From: a virus
Taxonomy: Duplodnaviria > Heunggongvirae > Uroviricota > Caudoviricetes
DNA length: 44,765 nucleotides
IMG/VR virus record: IMGVR_UViG_3300020152_000001
Coordinates: 1-44,765 of that record
Reading direction: 5' to 3' (one strand)
Shown here: piece after piece, positions 2,620-11,727 of the stretch
Position numbering within the stretch: the first letter of the stretch is position 1
How the letters are laid out: each line of letters starts with the position of its first letter
Program-made: the position numbers and the translations under genes
The notes under the pieces: model-generated
The model's input: the letters and a program-made list of their open reading frames with translations, nothing else
Database searches by the model: none
Told to the model about the DNA's origin: nothing

Positions 2620-3549
2620 TTAGGCGGTGACGGCCGCGTTGGTGATGCCCCAGATGCGCGCGGCAGCGCGGCCGTGCATGGCCGCGAGGCCAATCAGCCA
2701 TTCGATACGCGTGCGGAAGACCGGCTTCGCGTCGAGTTCGCCGAGGTCTTCGACCTCCATGACGCCGTTTTGCAGGCCCACGATCTTGCCGTCGCCGATC
2801 GACAGGACGTACAGCGACGTTTCCGTCTGCGAGTCCGCCGAAGGACCGGCTTCGTTGAAGTCGATGATGCGCTGGCCCTGGTCGTCGTAGTCGGCGATCA
2901 GGATCGGCAGGTCGTTGTAGCGGGTCACGCGGAAGCCGAACTCGTCGGTGTCCACGGTGATGTCGCCGCCCACGCCTTGGCGAGCCGCAGTTTGCAGCTT
3001 CCGGCGCATGGCCTTCGACATCAGGAGGTGGGTCGGGTTGTCGACGGCATCGATCGCGGCGTCGAGGACTTCGAGCGACAGCGGGCCGTCGACGTTTTGC
3101 GCGGCGGTCGGGCCAAAGAGCTGGCCACCGACGATGCGCTTACGCAGACCGTCGAATTCGCGCGGGTTGGCTTCGGAGTCGCCATTGACCATCTTCGCGG
3201 CGAGGTGGAGGGACAGAGCCTTCACCTTCATGGCTTCGTGCTGCGAGCGCACGCCTTCGCCGCGCGTCTTGATCAGCGCCTTGTCAACGTCCAAGTCGCC
3301 GCCCGCGATGCGGAGCACTTCGACTTGCGGGTTGATGATGCCCGTCGATTCCGAATAGGCTTCGTTGTAGCCACGGAACGCGACGCCAGGGAGCTTGCCT
3401 TCCTGGTTGTATGCGAGCGAGCCGCCCGGAATGTCTTCGAACGGAAGCGCACGCAGCAGGTCGCTGTTGCGCGCGAACATTTCGATGATAGCCGCCCGCT
3501 TGACGTTGCCGTCGTTGAGCTTGGAGGCTTCCATAAGAGTCAGAGCCAC
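2620..3549 (-). CDS. major capsid protein
   Basis: 309 aa; LPFEDIPGGSLAYNQE..LPGVAFRGYNEAY..STG and GGDLDVD..L motifs of phiCbK-type MCP; GGGAG RBS. Confidence 0.92.
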   Translation of the reverse strand: MALTLMEASKLNDGNVKRAAIIEMFARNSDLLRALPFEDIPGGSLAYNQEGKLPGVAFRGYNEAYSESTGIINPQVEVLRIAGGDLDVDKALIKTRGEGVRSQHEAMKVKALSLHLAAKMVNGDSEANPREFDGLRKRIVGGQLFGPTAAQNVDGPLSLEVLDAAIDAVDNPTHLLMSKAMRRKLQTAARQGVGGDITVDTDEFGFRVTRYNDLPILIADYDDQGQRIIDFNEAGPSADSQTETSLYVLSIGDGKIVGLQNGVMEVEDLGELDAKPVFRTRIEWLIGLAAMHGRAAARIWGITNAAVTA

Positions 3550-3712: not shown

Positions 3713-4513
3713 TTATTGCGCACCGAGTTTGTATTGGTGGGCGAGAGCCAGACGCTTCTCAGGAGCGAGCTTGTTGAACTGCTCCATCGTCATGCCGTTT
3801 GGCAGCGTCTTGCCGTTTCCACCGTTGTTGCCGCCGCCGTTGGCACCGCCACCGTTCGACTGCTTGAAGAAGTACGGAGCTTCTTCCTTGAGCTTGCCGA
3901 GCCATTCGAGCGGAGTCATCGCCGAGACGCCGTCTGCGCCATAGATGATGGCTTCGCCTTGCAAGGGGACGACACTGCCGTCATCCTTGACTTTGAAGAC
4001 CTTCGATGCGCGTTCCACGATGTCCGTGAGCGCACGAGCTTCGGCGCCAGACTTCGGGTCGAGCACAGCGTCGGTGATCACGCGATCAATGACCGAACGC
4101 CGATATTTGTTGTCGAACTCACCGGCGTTCTTTTCCGCCGCGACGCGCGCTTGTTCAGCAGCGAGCAGTCGTTGTTCGTAGCCCTGCTTCATCGACTCGA
4201 CACGCCGGGCGACTTCCGCCTCGATGTTGTCCGAGCCCTTGAGCTTGCCGTCCTTCACCTGCTGATCGACCGTCTTCAGACGTTCGACTTCAGTCTTGAA
4301 GCCATCGAAGTCGTCGCCGATCAGCGGCGCCAGAACATCGATCTTTTGCTTCAGACCATCACGTTCCTGGCTGATCTTCAGGTTGTTGTCGCGGAATTCG
4401 TCGAGCTTGGCCTTCGGGACCACGTTGACGACGAACTTGCCTTCAACTTCCTTCGCAGCTTCCTTGAGACCGTCCGGAATCGCTTCCATCGTGTCGAACG
4501 TAATGTCAGGCAT
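3713..4513 (-). CDS. capsid scaffolding protein
   Basis: Coiled-coil 266 aa upstream of MCP; KLDEFRDNN motif; Gly-rich tail. Confidence 0.8.
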   Translation of the reverse strand: MPDITFDTMEAIPDGLKEAAKEVEGKFVVNVVPKAKLDEFRDNNLKISQERDGLKQKIDVLAPLIGDDFDGFKTEVERLKTVDQQVKDGKLKGSDNIEAEVARRVESMKQGYEQRLLAAEQARVAAEKNAGEFDNKYRRSVIDRVITDAVLDPKSGAEARALTDIVERASKVFKVKDDGSVVPLQGEAIIYGADGVSAMTPLEWLGKLKEEAPYFFKQSNGGGANGGGNNGGNGKTLPNGMTMEQFNKLAPEKRLALAHQYKLGAQ

Positions 4514-5044: not shown

Positions 5045-5120
5045 TGGTCAGGGCGGAGAGATTCGAACTCCCGACCCCCTGTATCCAAAACAGGTGCGCT
5101 ACCAGCTGCGCTACGCCCTG
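5045..5120 (-). tRNA. tRNA-Pro(TGG)
   Basis: Full cloverleaf CAGGGCG...CGCCCTG-A-CCA; anticodon arm CCTGT-TTTGGAT-ACAGG; GTTCGAAT T-loop. Confidence 0.93.
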
Positions 5121-5134
5121 ATCTGACCTCTCGC

Positions 5135-5287
5135 TTAGTGCGAGGGTCGCGGTCGAGCGGACGCGCGAGCGCGTTGGTTTTTGCCGAAGCCCCAGCCGTT
5201 ACGCTGGGCGCGAAGAACCGTGCCCCCGTCGAAGACGACGAGAGCGGTGATAAGCAACAGCACTAGCAGCAGGCTGACGAAGTCCAT
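5135..5287 (-). CDS. small membrane protein
   Basis: ATG at 5287 with AAGGA RBS; N-terminal hydrophobic helix; basic tail. Confidence 0.6.
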   Translation of the reverse strand: MDFVSLLLVLLLITALVVFDGGTVLRAQRNGWGFGKNQRARASARPRPSH

Positions 5288-5300
5288 CGTCGTGATCCTT

Positions 5301-5378
5301 TGGTGCCGCGTGTGAGTGTCGAACTCACCCTGGACGGTTTCTGAGACCGTTGCCTCTACCAACGTGGGCTAACGCGGC
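5301..5378 (-). tRNA. tRNA-Leu(CAG) with short variable loop
   Basis: GCCGCGT...ACGCGGC-A-CCA; ACGGT-CTCAGAA-ACCGT; 5-nt variable region CCAGG. Confidence 0.88.
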
Positions 5379-5391
5379 AGAAGAGGGTCGG

Positions 5392-5469
5392 TGGTCGCGG
5401 GGGTCGGATTTGAACCGACGACCTACTGGTTATGAGCCAGCCGAGCTAACCGGACTGCTCCACCCCGCA
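5392..5469 (-). tRNA. tRNA-Met(CAT), initiator-like body
   Basis: TGCGGGG...CCCCGCG-A-CCA; A11:U24; CTCATAA loop; closely resembles bacterial tRNA-fMet. Confidence 0.9.
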
Positions 5470-5540
5470 GAAATTGGCGCTCCGAATAACGCCTCGGAAC
5501 TACGGCGACGTGGATTTTGGGCGGCACGTTCGCCCCGAAT

Positions 5541-5618
5541 TGGCAAAGGTCTAGGGAATCGAACCCTACTAGAACGGTTTTGGAGACCGACGCCTAACAC
5601 CAGCCGAGCCCGACCAAT
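5541..5618 (-). pseudogene. degenerate tRNA-Trp(CCA)
   Basis: Intact CGGT-CTCCAAA-ACCG arm, T-arm and G-CCA end; two U:U mismatches in the acceptor stem, no U8, poor D-arm. Confidence 0.65.
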
Positions 5619-5725
5619 CTCTGATCGGCATGCCGGCCGATCGAGTTAGCGGTTCACCTGCCATCGATGGGCGGGACGCGTCACTGTCTCAAACTCCAAA
5701 TCCGAAAGCCGACGCGTACTCTCGC

Positions 5726-6012
5726 AGAGGCGTCAGCCGTGTTGTCGAGATCGAGAACTGAAGCCCGTAGGGACTCGGGCTCCCTTTCGCGAGAATTCCT
5801 AATGGGGCGTCGGCCCTTCCCCGACAACGTCGCTCATCAAGGCGACGACCCCTGGTGCTGGGCGCGGGTTCACCGCTTCCCGGAAGCGGCACCTACACGT
5901 GGCAGGGCCGTCAGTATTAGAGGCCGGTACTGACCGCTCATCGCCGCTCTTCTCCGCGAACGGAGCGCATTCAAGCGTGTCGGACTTTCTCGACCTCGCT
6001 TCCCGGGCCTCT
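5726..6012 (-). ncRNA. large structured RNA with RNase-P-RNA-like P1/P2/P4 core
   Basis: Terminal stem AGAGGC/GCCTCT; 12-bp long-range helix CGAGGTCGAGAA/TTCTCGATCTCG; GAGAAAGTCCG and ACAACACGGCTGA resemble CR-I and CR-V and form a bulged P4; several internal hairpins. Confidence 0.55.
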
Positions 6013-6031
6013 CGACCCCAGAAGAAGAATT

Positions 6032-6093
6032 TGGAGCAGGGACGAGGGTTACACTCCCTCGCGAATTTCACCCGACCTCGCGGCCGGCCCCAC
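6032..6093 (-). ncRNA. miniature cloverleaf ending in CCA
   Basis: GTGGGG/CCCTGC stem with 2 GU pairs, GCGA-tetraloop arm, 4-bp stub arm, GAGGG-7nt-CCCTC arm, T-CCA. Confidence 0.45.
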
Positions 6094-6096
6094 GTA

Positions 6097-6378
6097 AATG
6101 CGCCGGGTTCTGTTGCCGGGCCCCGGCGGCCCCGCTCCGCGCCCTTAGGCCGCGCGAGCAAACTCTTGGTTGTCGTTCGCAGTTGAACGCCACCTGCCCC
6201 GCGCCTGTCGATACCTACTTCGCCCCCATCACCTACCCACCGAACACCCTCCACGGGTCCGGGGTCGTGAGGCCCCTGGCGGCCCCGAGTCACGAATGGG
6301 CCGGCCGATGAGTATGTGGTGGAGGCGGCGGGTGCCGCCCCCGCGTCCAGACACAAAGCCCTCGCTTTCGCAAGGAGC
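6097..6378 (-). ncRNA. ssrA: circularly permuted two-piece tmRNA: acceptor piece ~6378-6317, IVS 6316-6228, coding piece 6227-~6097
   Basis: ...GACGCGGGGGCGGCACCCGCCGCCTCCACCA precedes GGGGGCGAAGTAGGTATCGAC; the two form a 7-bp acceptor stem with G3.U70; tag frame 6180-6145 after CAACT reads ANDNQEFARAA-stop. Confidence 0.93.
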
Positions 6379-6381
6379 CGT

Positions 6382-6411
6382 GATGTAAGCATGCCTTACG
6401 CTTGATGTCAA
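6382..6411 (-). promoter_or_regulatory. tmRNA promoter
   Basis: TTGACA-N15-GCTTACATC, close to the Caulobacter housekeeping promoter pattern; CGTAAG in spacer. Confidence 0.75.
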
Positions 6412-6674
6412 GCGTGTTTGCGGCGCGGAATAAAACCGTCGCTGACTTTTATCGCGACGCTGCCTTTCAGCGAGTGGACCTTCGGCGCTTCTGGCGTGCC
6501 GGCCGCGACAGCAACTTCGGCGATGCCAGCGGCGTCGATCGCGCCTTCGGAGATCAGCCTTCGCGCTTCGACGATGTCGACGACGCGAACAGGCGACAGG
6601 CGGCCGTTGTCGAGACGGCGGAGTAGGCGAAAGCGCCCGGCGCGGGCGCGGCTGTGTTTGATCGTCAGACTCAT
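6408..6674 (-). CDS. hypothetical protein (88 aa)
   Basis: ATGA overlap with the thyA stop. Confidence 0.65.
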
Positions 6675-7552
6675 TTGCTCACGGGCGCTTTGATCGTTGG
6701 GTGTGGCTGGTAGCCTACGAGGTTGAAGTCTTCGAAGACGAAGTCGTCGATGTCCTGGCGTGTTGGGTTGATGATCATCTCCGGCGCCTTGCGAGTTTCG
6801 TCCCAGCGGCTGAGTTGAAGTCGCGCCTGATCGAGGTGGTTCTCGTACAGATGGCAATCGCCGATCGTATGGACGAACTCTCCGGGCTCAAGGTGGCAAA
6901 TCTGTGCGATCATCATCGTCAGCAGCGCGTAGCTCGCGATGTTGAACGGAACGCCTAGGAAGAAGTCACCGCTGCGCTGATACAGATGGCAGTTCAGCTT
7001 GCCTTCCTGAACGTAGAATTGGAAGAGCACGTGGCACGGCGGCAGCGCGACATCGGCGAGATCGTCGGGGTTCCAGGCCGTGACTATGTGCCGGCGGCCG
7101 TGTGGGTCCTTCTTGATGCCGTTGATCACGCGCCAGAGCTGGTCGATGCTCTGCTGTCCCCAACAACGCCACTGCTCTCCGTAAACGGGTCCGAGGTCGC
7201 CGTTCTCGTCTGCCCACTCATCCCAGATCGTGACGCCGGCTTCTTGCAGGCTGCGGACATTGGTCTCGCCGCGAATGAACCAGAGGAGTTCGTGGATGAC
7301 GGACTTCAGATGCACACGCTTCGTCGTCAGCAGCGGAAAGCCTTTGTCGAGATCGAAGCGCATCTGCGGCGCGAAGATCGAGATCGTCGGGCCGTTGCGG
7401 GTCTCGGCGCGGACGCCGCGCTCCAAGATCAATTCCAAGACGCGGAGATACTCGTCGTCGAAGACGTTGGTGCAAGGAGATGGGATCGAACCACCGACCA
7501 CAGCATTATCGGTGCTGTGCTCTACCGCTGAGCTATCCTTGCTCGAAATCAT
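6671..7552 (-). CDS. thyA: thymidylate synthase
   Basis: [43 protein letters not shown] motifs; start uncertain because a tRNA overlaps the 5' end. Confidence 0.95.
7468..7542 (-). tRNA. tRNA-Ile(GAT) nested in the thyA frame, with C33
   Basis: GCAAGGA...TCCTTGC-A-CCA; GCTC/GAGC D-stem; CAGCA-CCGATAA-TGCTG; GGTGG-TTCGATC-CCATC. Confidence 0.9.
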
Positions 7553-7582
7553 ATTTGCTCTGTGTCTTTCTACCGGAGAAAT

Positions 7583-7768
7583 TCAAGCCGCTCCGTGGCG
7601 GACGCGAACTCTCAGAGGTCCAAAGCACCAGAAGGATTCCTTGAGGTGCCGGCGTGGGAATTCCCAGGCCCAGTCTTTCCAAGAGGCGAACAGAGCGTGC
7701 TCTTCGCCCTTCCAATTCCAATAGAGCCAGTAGTTGGCTCCTCGTCGCGGGAACGTGAACCGTTTCAT
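7583..7768 (-). CDS. Trp-rich hypothetical protein
   Basis: ATGA overlap with the upstream gene. Confidence 0.65.
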   Translation of the reverse strand: MKRFTFPRRGANYWLYWNWKGEEHALFASWKDWAWEFPRRHLKESFWCFGPLRVRVRHGAA

Positions 7769-7968
7769 TTGTGCTCGACGATGCGAACGCGATGACTGCC
7801 GCCGAAGCGACGATCAGCGAACGCTTCCGCTTCTGCCTTGCTGTTGAATTTCTTCGCTGCGGGTTTGATCGTCGTCCAACCGTAATGCGCGAAGAAGCCG
7901 ATCTTCATCTCGCAGTAGAAGAGAGTGCCGGCCAGACGCACGCGATGTTCGATCAGCCAGCAGGACAT
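7765..7968 (-). CDS. hypothetical protein
   Basis: ATG at 7968 with GAGGAAG RBS. Confidence 0.7.
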   Translation of the reverse strand: MSCWLIEHRVRLAGTLFYCEMKIGFFAHYGWTTIKPAAKKFNSKAEAEAFADRRFGGSHRVRIVEHK

Positions 7969-7969
7969 C

Positions 7970-8497
7970 TCACTTCCTCTTCGAGCGCACCCGCCATTTG
8001 TCGAGTGGGAGTTTGGTGTCGACGTAATTGATGCCATCGCCACATCCGCTGCTGTGCTTGATGGCAGCGCGGACGGCTTTAATGGCTCCGGAGTCCTTGT
8101 GTGCAAACATGCAGCCGAGCGCGACTGAAGCTCCGGCTCCGCGTGCGAAGTATTCGGGAATCTTCGCACCTCGGTACACGAGCAGCGAGCTGTTGTTTTT
8201 CGAGACCGACGTGAAGTCGATCAGCATCCGCTTCTTGCGGCTGTCTTTCGGTACGGCGACGATGAGAAGTGTTAGGTCGCCGGGATAACTTGGCCGAGCG
8301 CCCGTTTCCACGATCTCTTTCGCCATGGCGACACAGTTGTCGTCGCTGTCGGCGTTGCCGGCCATGCCGACTACGCACTTGTAGTCCTTGGTGCTGAAGA
8401 TCGACAGCTTCGACATCGCCCCCATGGGCATGTCTTCGTCGAAATTGACCCGACGATCAGCAGCAATGACGCCGTCGCGATAGACGAGAACAGTCAC
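7970..8497 (-). CDS. HslV/proteasome-beta-like Ntn hydrolase
   Basis: M-T start, YRDGVIAAD, VVGMAGN and ARGAGASVALG motifs. Confidence 0.7.
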   Translation of the reverse strand: MTVLVYRDGVIAADRRVNFDEDMPMGAMSKLSIFSTKDYKCVVGMAGNADSDDNCVAMAKEIVETGARPSYPGDLTLLIVAVPKDSRKKRMLIDFTSVSKNNSSLLVYRGAKIPEYFARGAGASVALGCMFAHKDSGAIKAVRAAIKHSSGCGDGINYVDTKLPLDKWRVRSKRK

Positions 8498-9793: not shown

Positions 9794-9997
9794 TTAGGCT
9801 TCGAGCTGGCGTTCGCAGAAGGCCGCGTAGACGTTGGGTCGATTGGCCCCGGAGCCTTCATGGTTCTCGGCCGAGGTCGCCGCCGCTCGCATGCACTCAG
9901 TCAGCGTGCGGTATTCGCCAACGGGGACCGTAGTCGTTGTGTCCCAGAGCCCGAAGAGCTTCAAGTGGATGACGACGACCAGGACCCAGACTTCCAT
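9794..9997 (-). CDS. small protein with hydrophobic N-terminus and two Cys
   Basis: TAATG overlap with the portal stop. Confidence 0.65.
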   Translation of the reverse strand: MEVWVLVVVIHLKLFGLWDTTTTVPVGEYRTLTECMRAAATSAENHEGSGANRPNVYAAFCERQLEA

Positions 9998-11727
9998 TAT
10001 CTGCGGCCTCCGCCGCCGCCGGCCGGTCGTTGGCCACCGCCCTGGCGCTGCTGCTGCGCCGCTCGAAGCGCGTTGGCTTGTGGCGGCGGCCGTAGTTTGG
10101 CCTCGCGTTCGCGGGCCTTGCGTTCGGCTTCGGCTTGCTCGCTCTCGTGTTCGCGAGTTGCGGCTCCCTCTTCGCTCTCGTGTTCGCGATCGAGCGCGTT
10201 CTCGCCGCGATCGAGATCGGCGTTCTCGTCGTCGATCTCCGACTGCCGGTTCGGGTAGCCGCGCTGGCGGGCTTCGGCGTCCGGCTGCATCGGGAACGAG
10301 TTCGTGCTCGTGAGCAGCTTCTTGAGTTCTTCGATCGACAGCCAGTCGGGGATGACTTCGGCGCGACGCAGGTAGTCGTGAACGACTTCGATCGGCAGGA
10401 TGCCATCGGTATACATCGCGTGGATGGCGCGGAACTCGCGAGCGCTGATGTTGTCGAACAGGAAGTCTTTGTTGCTTTCGACCAGAGCCTTCTCGGCTTC
10501 GGCCGCCGGCACGTCTTGCCAGACCAGCCACCACTGCAGCAGCTGCGTGAAGCCGGTGTCCAGCGTGCTCGACACATTCAACAGCGTCGACTGTTCGTTG
10601 CGCTCTTTGGTCTTGGCGACGTTGTCGCTCTCGGCCGTCGAGCCGCTGCGAAAACCCAGAAGCCGACCGCCGAGGCTCGACACCTGTTGTTCTTTTTGAT
10701 CGAGAGCGGACTCAAGAAACTTGAGACCATGGCCGTTGAATTCAATGACGCCGGGCTTTTCGTTTGGCCCGACTTCCCAGACCGTCGACGGGCCCAGGTG
10801 GTATTCGCTCTTGTCGCTGGCTCCGTTCACCTGCACGTAGTAGATCGGGAGCCCGGTGAAGAAGCGCCCGTGCTCCAGGTGAGCGTAGCTGCGATAGTGG
10901 CTGAGGTTCAGCGTCGCGATGTCATACACCGGCGACTTCTCGACATCGGGGCCGTTGGTGTACGGGCCGAAGAAGACGAAGGGGATGTAGGAGAATGGGA
11001 CGCCGCGATTTTTCGGCGTGAAGACGTTGGACGGGGCGGCGTCGATCGACGCATCCGCGCCTTCGTTCTCGTAGACCTCTTGCACGTAGGCCCAACCGTT
11101 CGAGGTCTCGGACGACTCCACGAGCTTGCAGATGCGATACGTGGTGAAATACTGGCGGCTCTGTCCTTGAGACGCGCGGCTGATCTTGATCTCGCGGAGA
11201 ACGATTTTCGAGAGCACGCAGCGGCCGTCGATGTCCATCGTCTCCCAGTCGACGATGTTCTCGGAGATGTAGGAGCAGAGATACGGCGGCGCGCTGCCGT
11301 TCGCATCCATGTCGAGGAGAACGCCGACACGGCCCATGTGGATGATTTCTTGGGCCACGAGCTTGACGACGAGTTCAAGGCTCTCGTTGCTCTTGCCGAT
11401 CTTCTTCAGTCCCTTCTCCAGGCGCTGAGGAACGCCGGTGAACTTCGCCGGCCGGCGGAAGAGCGTGCCAATCATTCCCGACACAGTGCGACCGACCATG
11501 TTGTAGAACACGGCGCGATCGAGATAGGCCTGATACTCGTCGGTGTCCTGGGTCTCCAGGCGCGGGAGGTAGATGACGCCCTTCCGCTTGACCTCGACTT
11601 CGCCGAGGAAGGTGTCGCGCAACAACGACCACTCCGGCGCCCAATAGGCGTAGTCCGGGTGGGCGAACTCCGGGCCCATGGTCAGAGCCGCGAGAGCGCG
11701 ATTATTTTGCGGGTTCTTTTTGGCCAC
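9997..11727 (-). CDS. portal protein (DUF4055-type)
   Basis: 576 aa; YLPRL..Y..Y..RA.FYN..RT..G, GRVGVLLD, N..HY...A motifs. Confidence 0.9.
   Translation of the reverse strand: MAKKNPQNNRALAALTMGPEFAHPDYAYWAPEWSLLRDTFLGEVEVKRKGVIYLPRLETQDTDEYQAYLDRAVFYNMVGRTVSGMIGTLFRRPAKFTGVPQRLEKGLKKIGKSNESLELVVKLVAQEIIHMGRVGVLLDMDANGSAPPYLCSYISENIVDWETMDIDGRCVLSKIVLREIKISRASQGQSRQYFTTYRICKLVESSETSNGWAYVQEVYENEGADASIDAAPSNVFTPKNRGVPFSYIPFVFFGPYTNGPDVEKSPVYDIATLNLSHYRSYAHLEHGRFFTGLPIYYVQVNGASDKSEYHLGPSTVWEVGPNEKPGVIEFNGHGLKFLESALDQKEQQVSSLGGRLLGFRSGSTAESDNVAKTKERNEQSTLLNVSSTLDTGFTQLLQWWLVWQDVPAAEAEKALVESNKDFLFDNISAREFRAIHAMYTDGILPIEVVHDYLRRAEVIPDWLSIEELKKLLTSTNSFPMQPDAEARQRGYPNRQSEIDDENADLDRGENALDREHESEEGAATREHESEQAEAERKAREREAKLRPPPQANALRAAQQQRQGGGQRPAGGGGGRR

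Follow-up and report, generated by a model that had tools for sequence, protein, structure and literature searches.

The window analyzed here comprises the first 44.8 kb (44,765 nucleotides, nt) of a 132,731-bp virus record of IMG/VR (IMGVR_UViG_3300020152_000001), which carries direct terminal repeats of 127 bp, has a G+C content of 61% and a CheckV completeness of 100%, and is a complete phage genome. Within it, flanked on both sides by phage head genes that are all encoded on the minus strand, lies a circularly permuted transfer-messenger RNA (tmRNA) gene, all features of which were read on the minus strand of positions 6097–6411. We consider it likely that this locus is a genuine and complete ssrA gene carried by the phage, belonging to the circularly permuted type of the Alphaproteobacteria, in a reduced version of the family. 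A complete permuted gene had been claimed in the original prediction, and the claim was borne out by Rfam models, by the completeness of the genome record and by a cofold of the two predicted RNA pieces.

The gene order is permuted, with an acceptor piece (CCA end at 6317) being followed by an 89-nt spacer and then by a coding piece starting at 6227. The acceptor piece of ~60 nt (6317–6376) was placed using Rfam alignments, coordinates and an unconstrained cofold, its 5′ end being set from a promoter-like site. It is comprised of a 5′ GNRA hairpin (CCUUGC-GAAA-GCGAGG, 6375–6360), one strand of helix 2 (P2; GCUUUGUGUCUG, 6359–6348), a T-arm with the stem strands GCGGG (6344–6340) and CCCGC (6332–6328) around the loop GGCGGCA (6339–6333), the acceptor 3′ strand CGCCUCC (6327–6321), A73 (6320) and an encoded CCA (6319–6317). 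The intervening segment (6228–6316) is exactly 89 nt long and is predicted to be removed in maturation; it possesses a UGAU leader at its end and a GUGGAG motif, both of which are common to the aligned relatives.

The coding piece of ~131 nt (6097–6227) was delimited by Rfam alignment, coordinates and cofold, with its 3′ end set from the consensus end of RF01849 and the start of a downstream tRNA-like element. It begins with the acceptor 5′ strand GGGGGCG (6227–6221), which together with CGCCUCC gives a 7-bp acceptor stem with G3·U70; the originally described succession of acceptor piece, 89-nt segment and GGGGGCG, along with this alanine identity pair, is thus present at 6327–6221. A D-loop analog (6220–6208), the second P2 strand (CAGGCGCGGGGC, 6207–6196) and a linker of 15 nt lacking pseudoknot 1 (6195–6181) follow, the motif CAACU standing directly upstream of the resume codon GCG (6180). 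The tag frame (GCG AAC GAC AAC CAA GAG UUU GCU CGC GCG GCC UAA, 6145–6180) is closed by UAA at 6147–6145, in the hairpin loop of helix 5 (H5, 6134–6159, by cofold), and is followed by a terminal H-type pseudoknot (6101–6132).

Unconstrained cofolding of the proposed 60-nt and 131-nt pieces with ViennaRNA returned the 5′ hairpin, a 12-bp P2 of GCUUUGUGUCUG with CAGGCGCGGGGC joining both pieces, the T-arm, the 7-bp acceptor stem with free ACCA, and H5 with UAA in its loop; the core of P2 is also paired in the alignment to RF04321. Sequence and cofold together provide a tRNA-like domain with a 7-bp acceptor stem including G3·U70, an unpaired ACCA, a 5-bp T-stem and a 7-nt loop, and a short frame with a GCN resume codon, an Ala-Ala end and a stop codon in the H5 loop. 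When the precursor is folded, the acceptor stem is lengthened into a long stem by the intervening segment. The CAACU context before GCG at 6180, the looped stop codon and the GGCAACAGAA element near the end of the coding piece, each of which had been noticed beforehand, were all found in place. The alpha_tmRNA model (RF01849), which had been suggested as a check, gave 52.4 bits against a gathering cut-off of 50 (E 7e-12 over the whole window), and tmRNA_permuted (RF04321) gave 50.7 bits against 47 (E 3.7e-7 over the whole window) along its full length (model positions 1–213); the two matches exceed chance. A blastn search of the gene against isolated phages yielded a sole match of 41 nt, in the T-arm and acceptor region of Erythrobacter phage vB_EliS-L02.

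The terminal pseudoknot, having the R-C/A-AACAGAA loop of the family, lies at the 3′ end of the coding piece and is built from S1 (GGGC 6132–6129 with GCCC 6121–6118), S2 (CGCCGGG 6128–6122 with CCCGGCG 6107–6101) and the loop GGCAACAGAA (6117–6108). Using an alignment of 34 alpha-type permuted tmRNA genes from phages and viral contigs, anchored on the GGCAACAGAA loop, pairing was found in 85% of cells compared with 55% in shuffles, all 11 pairs vary on both sides, and the covariation score was 0.734 against 0.19 in shuffles and 0.14–0.25 with slid partners. S2 of the window is paired at seven of seven positions with a sequence unlike that of its nearest relative (CGCCGGG/CCCGGCG here, GGCUCCA/UGGAGCC there). 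S1 needs a register 1–2 nt off that of the majority, which is possible because of a GGGG run in the window. Sequence anatomy, family membership, synteny and the family-wide covariation of this pseudoknot are the observations on which the identification of the gene stands.

To place the gene among related phages, the portal was used as a query, which identified three uncultured relatives at 62–69% identity. All three carry a permuted tmRNA 2.6–2.9 kb downstream of the portal (RF04321, 116–117 bits). In these relatives the RNA island reads tRNA-Tyr, Asn, (Phe), Ile, tmRNA, Trp, Met, Leu, Pro, and in the window it reads tRNA-Tyr, Ile, tmRNA, a 62-nt CCA-ended remnant, Met, Leu, Pro. Given the same place and the shared tRNA order, the tmRNA is an inherited part of this clade of large siphophages, passed on vertically rather than captured recently. 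Two of the relatives, L135 (IMGVR_UViG_3300009982_000025, the nearest relative above) and L136 (IMGVR_UViG_3300009982_000023), share with the window the site between portal and scaffold, the flanking tRNA order, the permuted layout, the 5′ hairpin, an 11–12-residue ANDN or VNDN tag, the lack of pseudoknot 2 and the terminal GGCAACAGAA pseudoknot. They differ in that pseudoknot 1 is kept (offset 81 nt vs. 47), the tags end in AIAA or ALAA, the scores reach 116–117 bits and default ARAGORN calls the gene. A search with the scaffold protein for closer relatives led to a contig that ends before the tmRNA locus. Isolated relatives with a permuted tmRNA (portal identity 43–46%) are DSS3P8 (107 bits), Cp1R7A-A1 (99 bits), vB_EliS-L02 (92 bits) and Lacusarx (91 bits).

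An unusual feature of the gene is its small size. P2 and the resume codon lie only 15 nt apart, and the alignment indicates that the ~42 nt which form pseudoknot 1 at this point in L135 and L136 are absent; this loss takes out pseudoknot 1 cleanly while the CAACU context is kept. With pseudoknots 1 and 2 both gone, the terminal pseudoknot alone remains, in pieces of ~60 and ~131 nt. The offset, counted from the acceptor 5′ end up to the resume codon, is 47 nt in the window; among 108 other loci with a locatable ANDN-type tag start it was 60–69 nt in 32, 80–89 nt in 59 and 47–48 nt in five. A survey of 274 sequences found pseudoknot 1 to be well supported, the sole exceptions, with a lacking or incomplete one, being Oenococcus oeni, mitochondria and a partial plastid sequence from Pavlova (PMC1168896).

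The same one-pseudoknot layout without pseudoknot 1 was found in seven further contigs, five of them the viral loci just counted at 47–48 nt (L024, L030, L056, L096, L098) and two from metagenome-assembled genomes (MAGs; L144, L149) whose bins are assigned to Verrucomicrobiales and Opitutia. These low-GC contigs resemble the window in their 47–48-nt offset, absence of pseudoknot 1 and single terminal pseudoknot, and differ in their unrelated sequence, G+C content of 37–39%, higher Rfam scores of 72–93 bits and normal tags of 12–14 residues ending in ...ALAA, ...RLAA or ...AAAA. As seven contigs show the same layout independently, it can be argued that the layout works. Default ARAGORN misses the window and all three of the minimal forms tested (L024, L096, L098) and calls all eight tested genes with pseudoknot 1; ARAGORN-based surveys of phage tmRNAs (e.g., the count in PMC9004378) are therefore probably undercounts. 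A scan for the short-offset pattern in one genome per species of 185,579 prokaryote species gave 11 matches, nine of which were chance matches and two of which, the MAG contigs, were true; no short-offset form was seen in any named alphaproteobacterium, a result that the narrowness of the pattern and the want of a positive control make suggestive only. Methylophilales phage Melnitz was considered as an isolate with the minimal form and was ruled out by its offset of 82 nt.

The encoded tag is ANDNQEFARAA (11 codons), and together with the charged alanine the added tag is predicted to be AANDNQEFARAA. In a comparison with 80 distinct tags from other alpha-type permuted genes, all 80 end in Ala-Ala, preceded by Leu (71), Ile (six), Val, Phe or Ala (one each). 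The window has ...FARAA where its relatives have ...FAIAA and ...IALAA, with the codon CGC in place of AUC or CUC. In the H5 fold the first and third bases of this CGC are paired and its middle G is bulged, and the 3′ strand of H5 differs from that of L135 in keeping with the codon; the paired bases and the matching strand argue against a simple sequencing error without proving the point. As ClpX recognizes the C-terminal LAA of the tag (PMC3968760), it is a reasonable inference that the ARAA end would be a weaker ClpX signal. With regard to the phage proteins themselves, the ANDN motif occurs twice within them against 0.26 expected, which is too few to build on. In a crude set of 134 open reading frames (ORFs) taken as likely proteins of the genome by a filter on G+C at third codon positions (GC3), 10 end in Ala-Ala, compared with ~1.4–1.8% expected from dipeptide frequency (binomial p ~2e-5); RAA is the ending of three proteins, and in one of the three it is preceded by Ala, giving the ARAA of the tag.

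Outside the window, the genome encodes on its minus strand a predicted alpha-type SspB adaptor of 145 residues (genome positions 60653–61090; L138:1402–1839), which has a match to the Pfam domain SspB (PF04386) at 60752–61039 (58.3 bits; cut-off 27). Among proteins of solved structure it matches best the alpha-type SspB of Agrobacterium (2NYS, E 2e-10) and that of Caulobacter (2QAS, 2QAZ). Its C-terminal GTVIRLDTFRKR can be aligned with the tail GSVVSLDAFRKK of the Agrobacterium protein, the ClpX-docking tail being VIRLDTFRKRK. No SspB was found in the five related isolates searched (Lacusarx, DSS3P8, Cp1R7A-A1, and RXM and Mwe-JY26, which are without a tmRNA), vB_EliS-L02 and Melnitz having been outside this search. 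With the protein as tblastn query, nothing was matched among 50,697 phage records, nor did IMG/VR yield a close relative. The only phage SspB that we found discussed in the literature belongs to Pseudomonas phage pf16, which is without any ssrA (PMC5587285). The phage of the window is thus predicted to encode both a tag-writing RNA and a tag-reading adaptor. We put forward only very tentatively, as something we think unlikely, that it supplies a matched pair, a mini-tmRNA whose tag keeps the SspB-binding AANDN head and has a weakened ClpX end (ARAA for ALAA), together with its own SspB and the ClpX-docking tail of that protein; were this true, destruction of tmRNA-tagged proteins in infection would depend on, and be timed by, the phage SspB. 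Engineered adaptor-dependent ssrA variants for controlled proteolysis work in a comparable manner (PMC3064785). As a separate suggestion, and one we hold just as doubtful, the one-pseudoknot two-piece form of ~190 nt may represent a minimal, phage-restricted class of tmRNA.

How such an RNA would be produced and used can be outlined from knowledge of two-piece tmRNAs (PMC3968760; PMC1168896), and for transcription, processing, charging and tagging, as well as for any benefit to the phage, we infer the following. The precursor would probably arise from a weak sigma-70-like promoter of its own or from thyA transcription running on into the gene. An own promoter was part of the original prediction and is plausible from the sequence: a promoter-like site (6383–6411, minus strand) has a perfect −35 box, TTGACA (6411–6406), a 17-nt spacer and TTACAT (6388–6383), matching the −10 consensus at three of six positions, and ends ~6 nt before the 5′ hairpin. 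The site is conserved in position, L135 and L136 having TTGACT, 17 nt and CATAGG or CATACC at the same place relative to the hairpin. What did not stand is an independent call, since a scan for sigma-70 promoters and terminators returned no promoter here at its thresholds, and the only terminator that it called on the tmRNA strand is the 5′ hairpin of the acceptor piece itself. The consensus of RF01849 starts ~40 nt upstream of this hairpin, in a stretch that includes a UAUAUU motif, and thyA has its stop at 6671, followed by a GC-rich palindrome.

Folding of the precursor would bring both halves of the tRNA-like domain together, so that host RNase P could cut before G6227, at the 5′ end of GGGGGCG, and tRNA-type 3′ trimming could expose the encoded CCA at 6317. 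The 3′ end of the coding piece would probably be set by cleavage at the 5′ edge of the tRNA-like remnant (6093–6032), which may act as a processing signal; in the relatives a real tRNA-Trp follows the tmRNA by a few nt. The mature pieces of ~60 nt (acceptor) and ~131 nt (coding) would be kept together by the 7-bp acceptor stem and the 12-bp P2, charged by host alanyl-tRNA synthetase through G3·U70 and delivered to stalled ribosomes by host SmpB. The original prediction had noted that no smpB is visible in the window; this holds for the whole 132.7-kb genome, in which none was found by a search that did match the control genomes. Translation would then resume at GCG, adding (A)ANDNQEFARAA, and the likeliest benefit to the phage would be that ribosome rescue is kept going during infection.

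A number of observations count against a functional tmRNA at this locus. Both Rfam scores exceed their cut-offs narrowly, the RF01849 alignment covers only model positions 85–169 (85 of 355), and the exact form of this RNA is known from one genome. ARAGORN, which had been named as a check, supports the gene in part: at default settings no tmRNA is called here, and at -ps80 a gene with the same tag ANDNQEFARAA is called alongside false positives. Pseudoknot 1 is absent without a conserved substitute in the 15-nt linker, the fold near the resume codon being a weak stem of 5–6 bp that is not common to the relatives, and tagging in Escherichia coli requires pseudoknot 1 unless a stable hairpin stands in for it (PMC3968760). 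Arginine at position −3 of the tag is found in none of the 80 other distinct tags. The last two points would fit an RNA that is made and binds SmpB, and perhaps ribosomes, and tags poorly or not at all, acting mainly as a competitor of the host tmRNA or as a rescue-only device with products that are not efficiently destroyed. For such an outcome speak the missing pseudoknot on which E. coli tagging depends in the absence of a stable hairpin, the Arg that replaces Leu in the LAA end read by ClpX (PMC3968760), and the precedent of a molecule of the mycobacteriophage DS6A type, which consists of a tRNA-like domain only and strongly inhibits tmRNA, perhaps via SmpB titration (PMC4131195). However, a pure decoy would have no need of the resume context, the frame of 11 codons, a stop codon looped out by H5 or the terminal pseudoknot, all of which this RNA has kept intact, and the other forms lacking pseudoknot 1 retain normal ...ALAA tags, so that we regard this explanation as unlikely.

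It could also be that the gene is decaying, the loss of pseudoknot 1, the Arg codon and the remnant of tRNA-Trp being signs of erosion of the RNA island in one phage. Its Rfam scores, at ~50 bits vs. 72–122, are the lowest among the relatives examined, the adjoining tRNA-Trp has been reduced to a 62-nt remnant, and thyA and a peptidase gene have been inserted in the island. Erosion would not readily leave all helices of the tRNA-like domain, P2, H5 and the pseudoknot still paired, S2 fully paired despite a sequence differing from that of L135, pseudoknot 1 removed by a clean ~42-nt deletion with the CAACU context left behind, and a frame that is open and ends in Ala-Ala; decay is in our judgment quite improbable. 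That the phage might have captured host ssrA DNA here, or that the locus might be the half of an attachment site that stems from ssrA, deserved consideration given that integration commonly takes place at ssrA and pieces of this gene are known from prophages (PMC9004378; PMC4131195), but this explanation is effectively refuted. Both pieces and the promoter-like site are present, the locus belongs to the head module and has syntenic counterparts in related phages, no short-offset form was found in named alphaproteobacterial genomes with the pattern used, and the two tyrosine recombinases/integrases of the phage lie at 68.8 kb and 99.7 kb of the genome, the latter beside a tRNA-Arg gene. The original statement that this is the whole gene and not an attP fragment is in agreement, both pieces being present and the integrases more than 60 kb away. 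A genuine, if reduced, phage tmRNA gene thus remains our preferred reading. With respect to integration, tRNA-Arg(ccg) at 98974–99050 is ~700 nt from a tyrosine integrase (PF00589, 70 bits) in the region 98974–100227, a typical attP arrangement, suggestive of a temperate lifestyle with integration at a tRNA-Arg gene of the host.

The head genes surrounding the RNA island are the major head protein (2620–3549), the scaffold (3713–4513) and the portal (9997–11727), all on the minus strand. Between scaffold and portal occur tRNA-Pro, tRNA-Leu and tRNA-Met (5045–5469), the tmRNA with its adjoining remnant, thyA (6671 to ~7450), tRNA-Ile (7468–7542), an HslV-family peptidase (phrog_1040; 7970–8497), tRNA-Tyr and a full-length match to the Rhizobiales small RNA (sRNA) family Atu_At1 (RF02496; 9536–9644, minus strand; 69.1 bits, cut-off 60). 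The CCA-ended remnant (62 nt, 6032–6093, minus strand) occupies the slot of tRNA-Trp in L135 and L136, immediately 3′ of the tmRNA. It folds into an acceptor-like stem, GUGGGG/CCCUGC with G·U at position 3, and a T-like hairpin, without an anticodon arm; its first ~15 nt resemble the tRNA-Trp of L135 and L136, which begins a few nt after their tmRNA. From the remnant to tRNA-Met, a region of ~560 nt (5470–6031) has no convincing ORF and no Rfam match, the only long ORF touching it being a spurious frame (5799–6392) overlapping the tmRNA. In L135 the corresponding gap measures ~170 nt. The insertion of thyA and the peptidase gene (6671–8497) is found in this phage only, there being RNA genes alone between portal and scaffold in L135 and L136. 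The longest thyA frame starts at 7552 and runs through tRNA-Ile, and its Pfam thymidylate synthase match begins at residue 34, just past that tRNA. That the HslV-like peptidase might be connected with the tmRNA was considered and rejected, as the gene is absent from L135 and L136 and the neighbor in vB_EliS-L02 had no tblastn match at E ≤ 1e-5.

The permuted form had been taken to point to the class of the host. Alphaproteobacteria as host class is indeed agreed upon by other lines of evidence, the alpha-specific Rfam model, the hosts of the relatives (Erythrobacter, Ruegeria, Sphingobium, Mesorhizobium and Caulobacter), the alpha-type SspB and the Rhizobiales sRNA match all suggesting it. The permuted form alone is not sufficient for this purpose, because it also occurs in beta-proteobacteria and cyanobacteria, and Melnitz carries an alpha-type gene and has a gamma-class host (PMC9004378). 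The Atu_At1 match inside a phage RNA island is a hint of a Rhizobiales-type host.

Phage-borne permuted tmRNAs are a known kind of gene, as is evident from the tmRNA reported in the paper on Lacusarx (PMC5648845), from a 2022 survey which found 53 two-piece tmRNAs among 18,146 phage genomes (PMC9004378) and from at least 120 contigs matched in a scan of IMG/VR with an alpha-type pattern. What sets the present gene apart as a variant is its reduction to one pseudoknot, the Arg near the end of its tag and the presence of an SspB gene in the same phage, which are worth modest follow-up. Pseudoknot 1 is the pseudoknot thought to matter for tagging and is nearly universal; a natural two-piece tmRNA of ~190 nt without it, or any evident hairpin substitute, would be a compact object for testing what trans-translation needs. 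The combination of tmRNA, unusual tag end and SspB in one phage suggests that some phages manage the whole pathway from tagging to degradation, beyond ribosome rescue.

Among isolated phages, Sphingobium phage Lacusarx, Roseobacter phage DSS3P8, Mesorhizobium phage Cp1R7A-A1, Erythrobacter phage vB_EliS-L02 and Methylophilales phage Melnitz resemble the phage of the window in having an alpha-type two-piece tmRNA and no reported phage smpB (PMC5648845; PMC9004378); the portal of Melnitz, unlike those of the other four, is not among the related ones. Their tmRNAs differ in having offsets of 82–89 nt, which fit a pseudoknot 1, and longer tags ending in LAA or IAA, no ANDN-type tag start having been located in DSS3P8. 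The tmRNA of vB_EliS-L02 (OL955261.1, ~75.7–76.1 kb; L002:2929–3337; RF04321, 91.9 bits; tag VNDNDVVVARDEVRLAA) follows a cluster of ~17 tRNA matches at a place where the gene table shows no feature, and the description of that phage makes no mention of a tmRNA (PMC9127768).

Comparison with a bacterial gene of the same type places the reduction in context. Reportedly, the two-piece tmRNA of Caulobacter crescentus was the subject of work by Keiler, Shapiro and Williams in 2000. Like the gene in the window, it places the acceptor piece first, has G3·U70, holds its pieces together through P2, specifies a tag of the form AANDN... and includes a terminal pseudoknot. The Caulobacter pieces are of 213 and 83 nt and contain pk1, pk2 and pk3 (PMC1168896), whereas those of the phage are of ~131 and ~60 nt and contain the terminal pseudoknot only.

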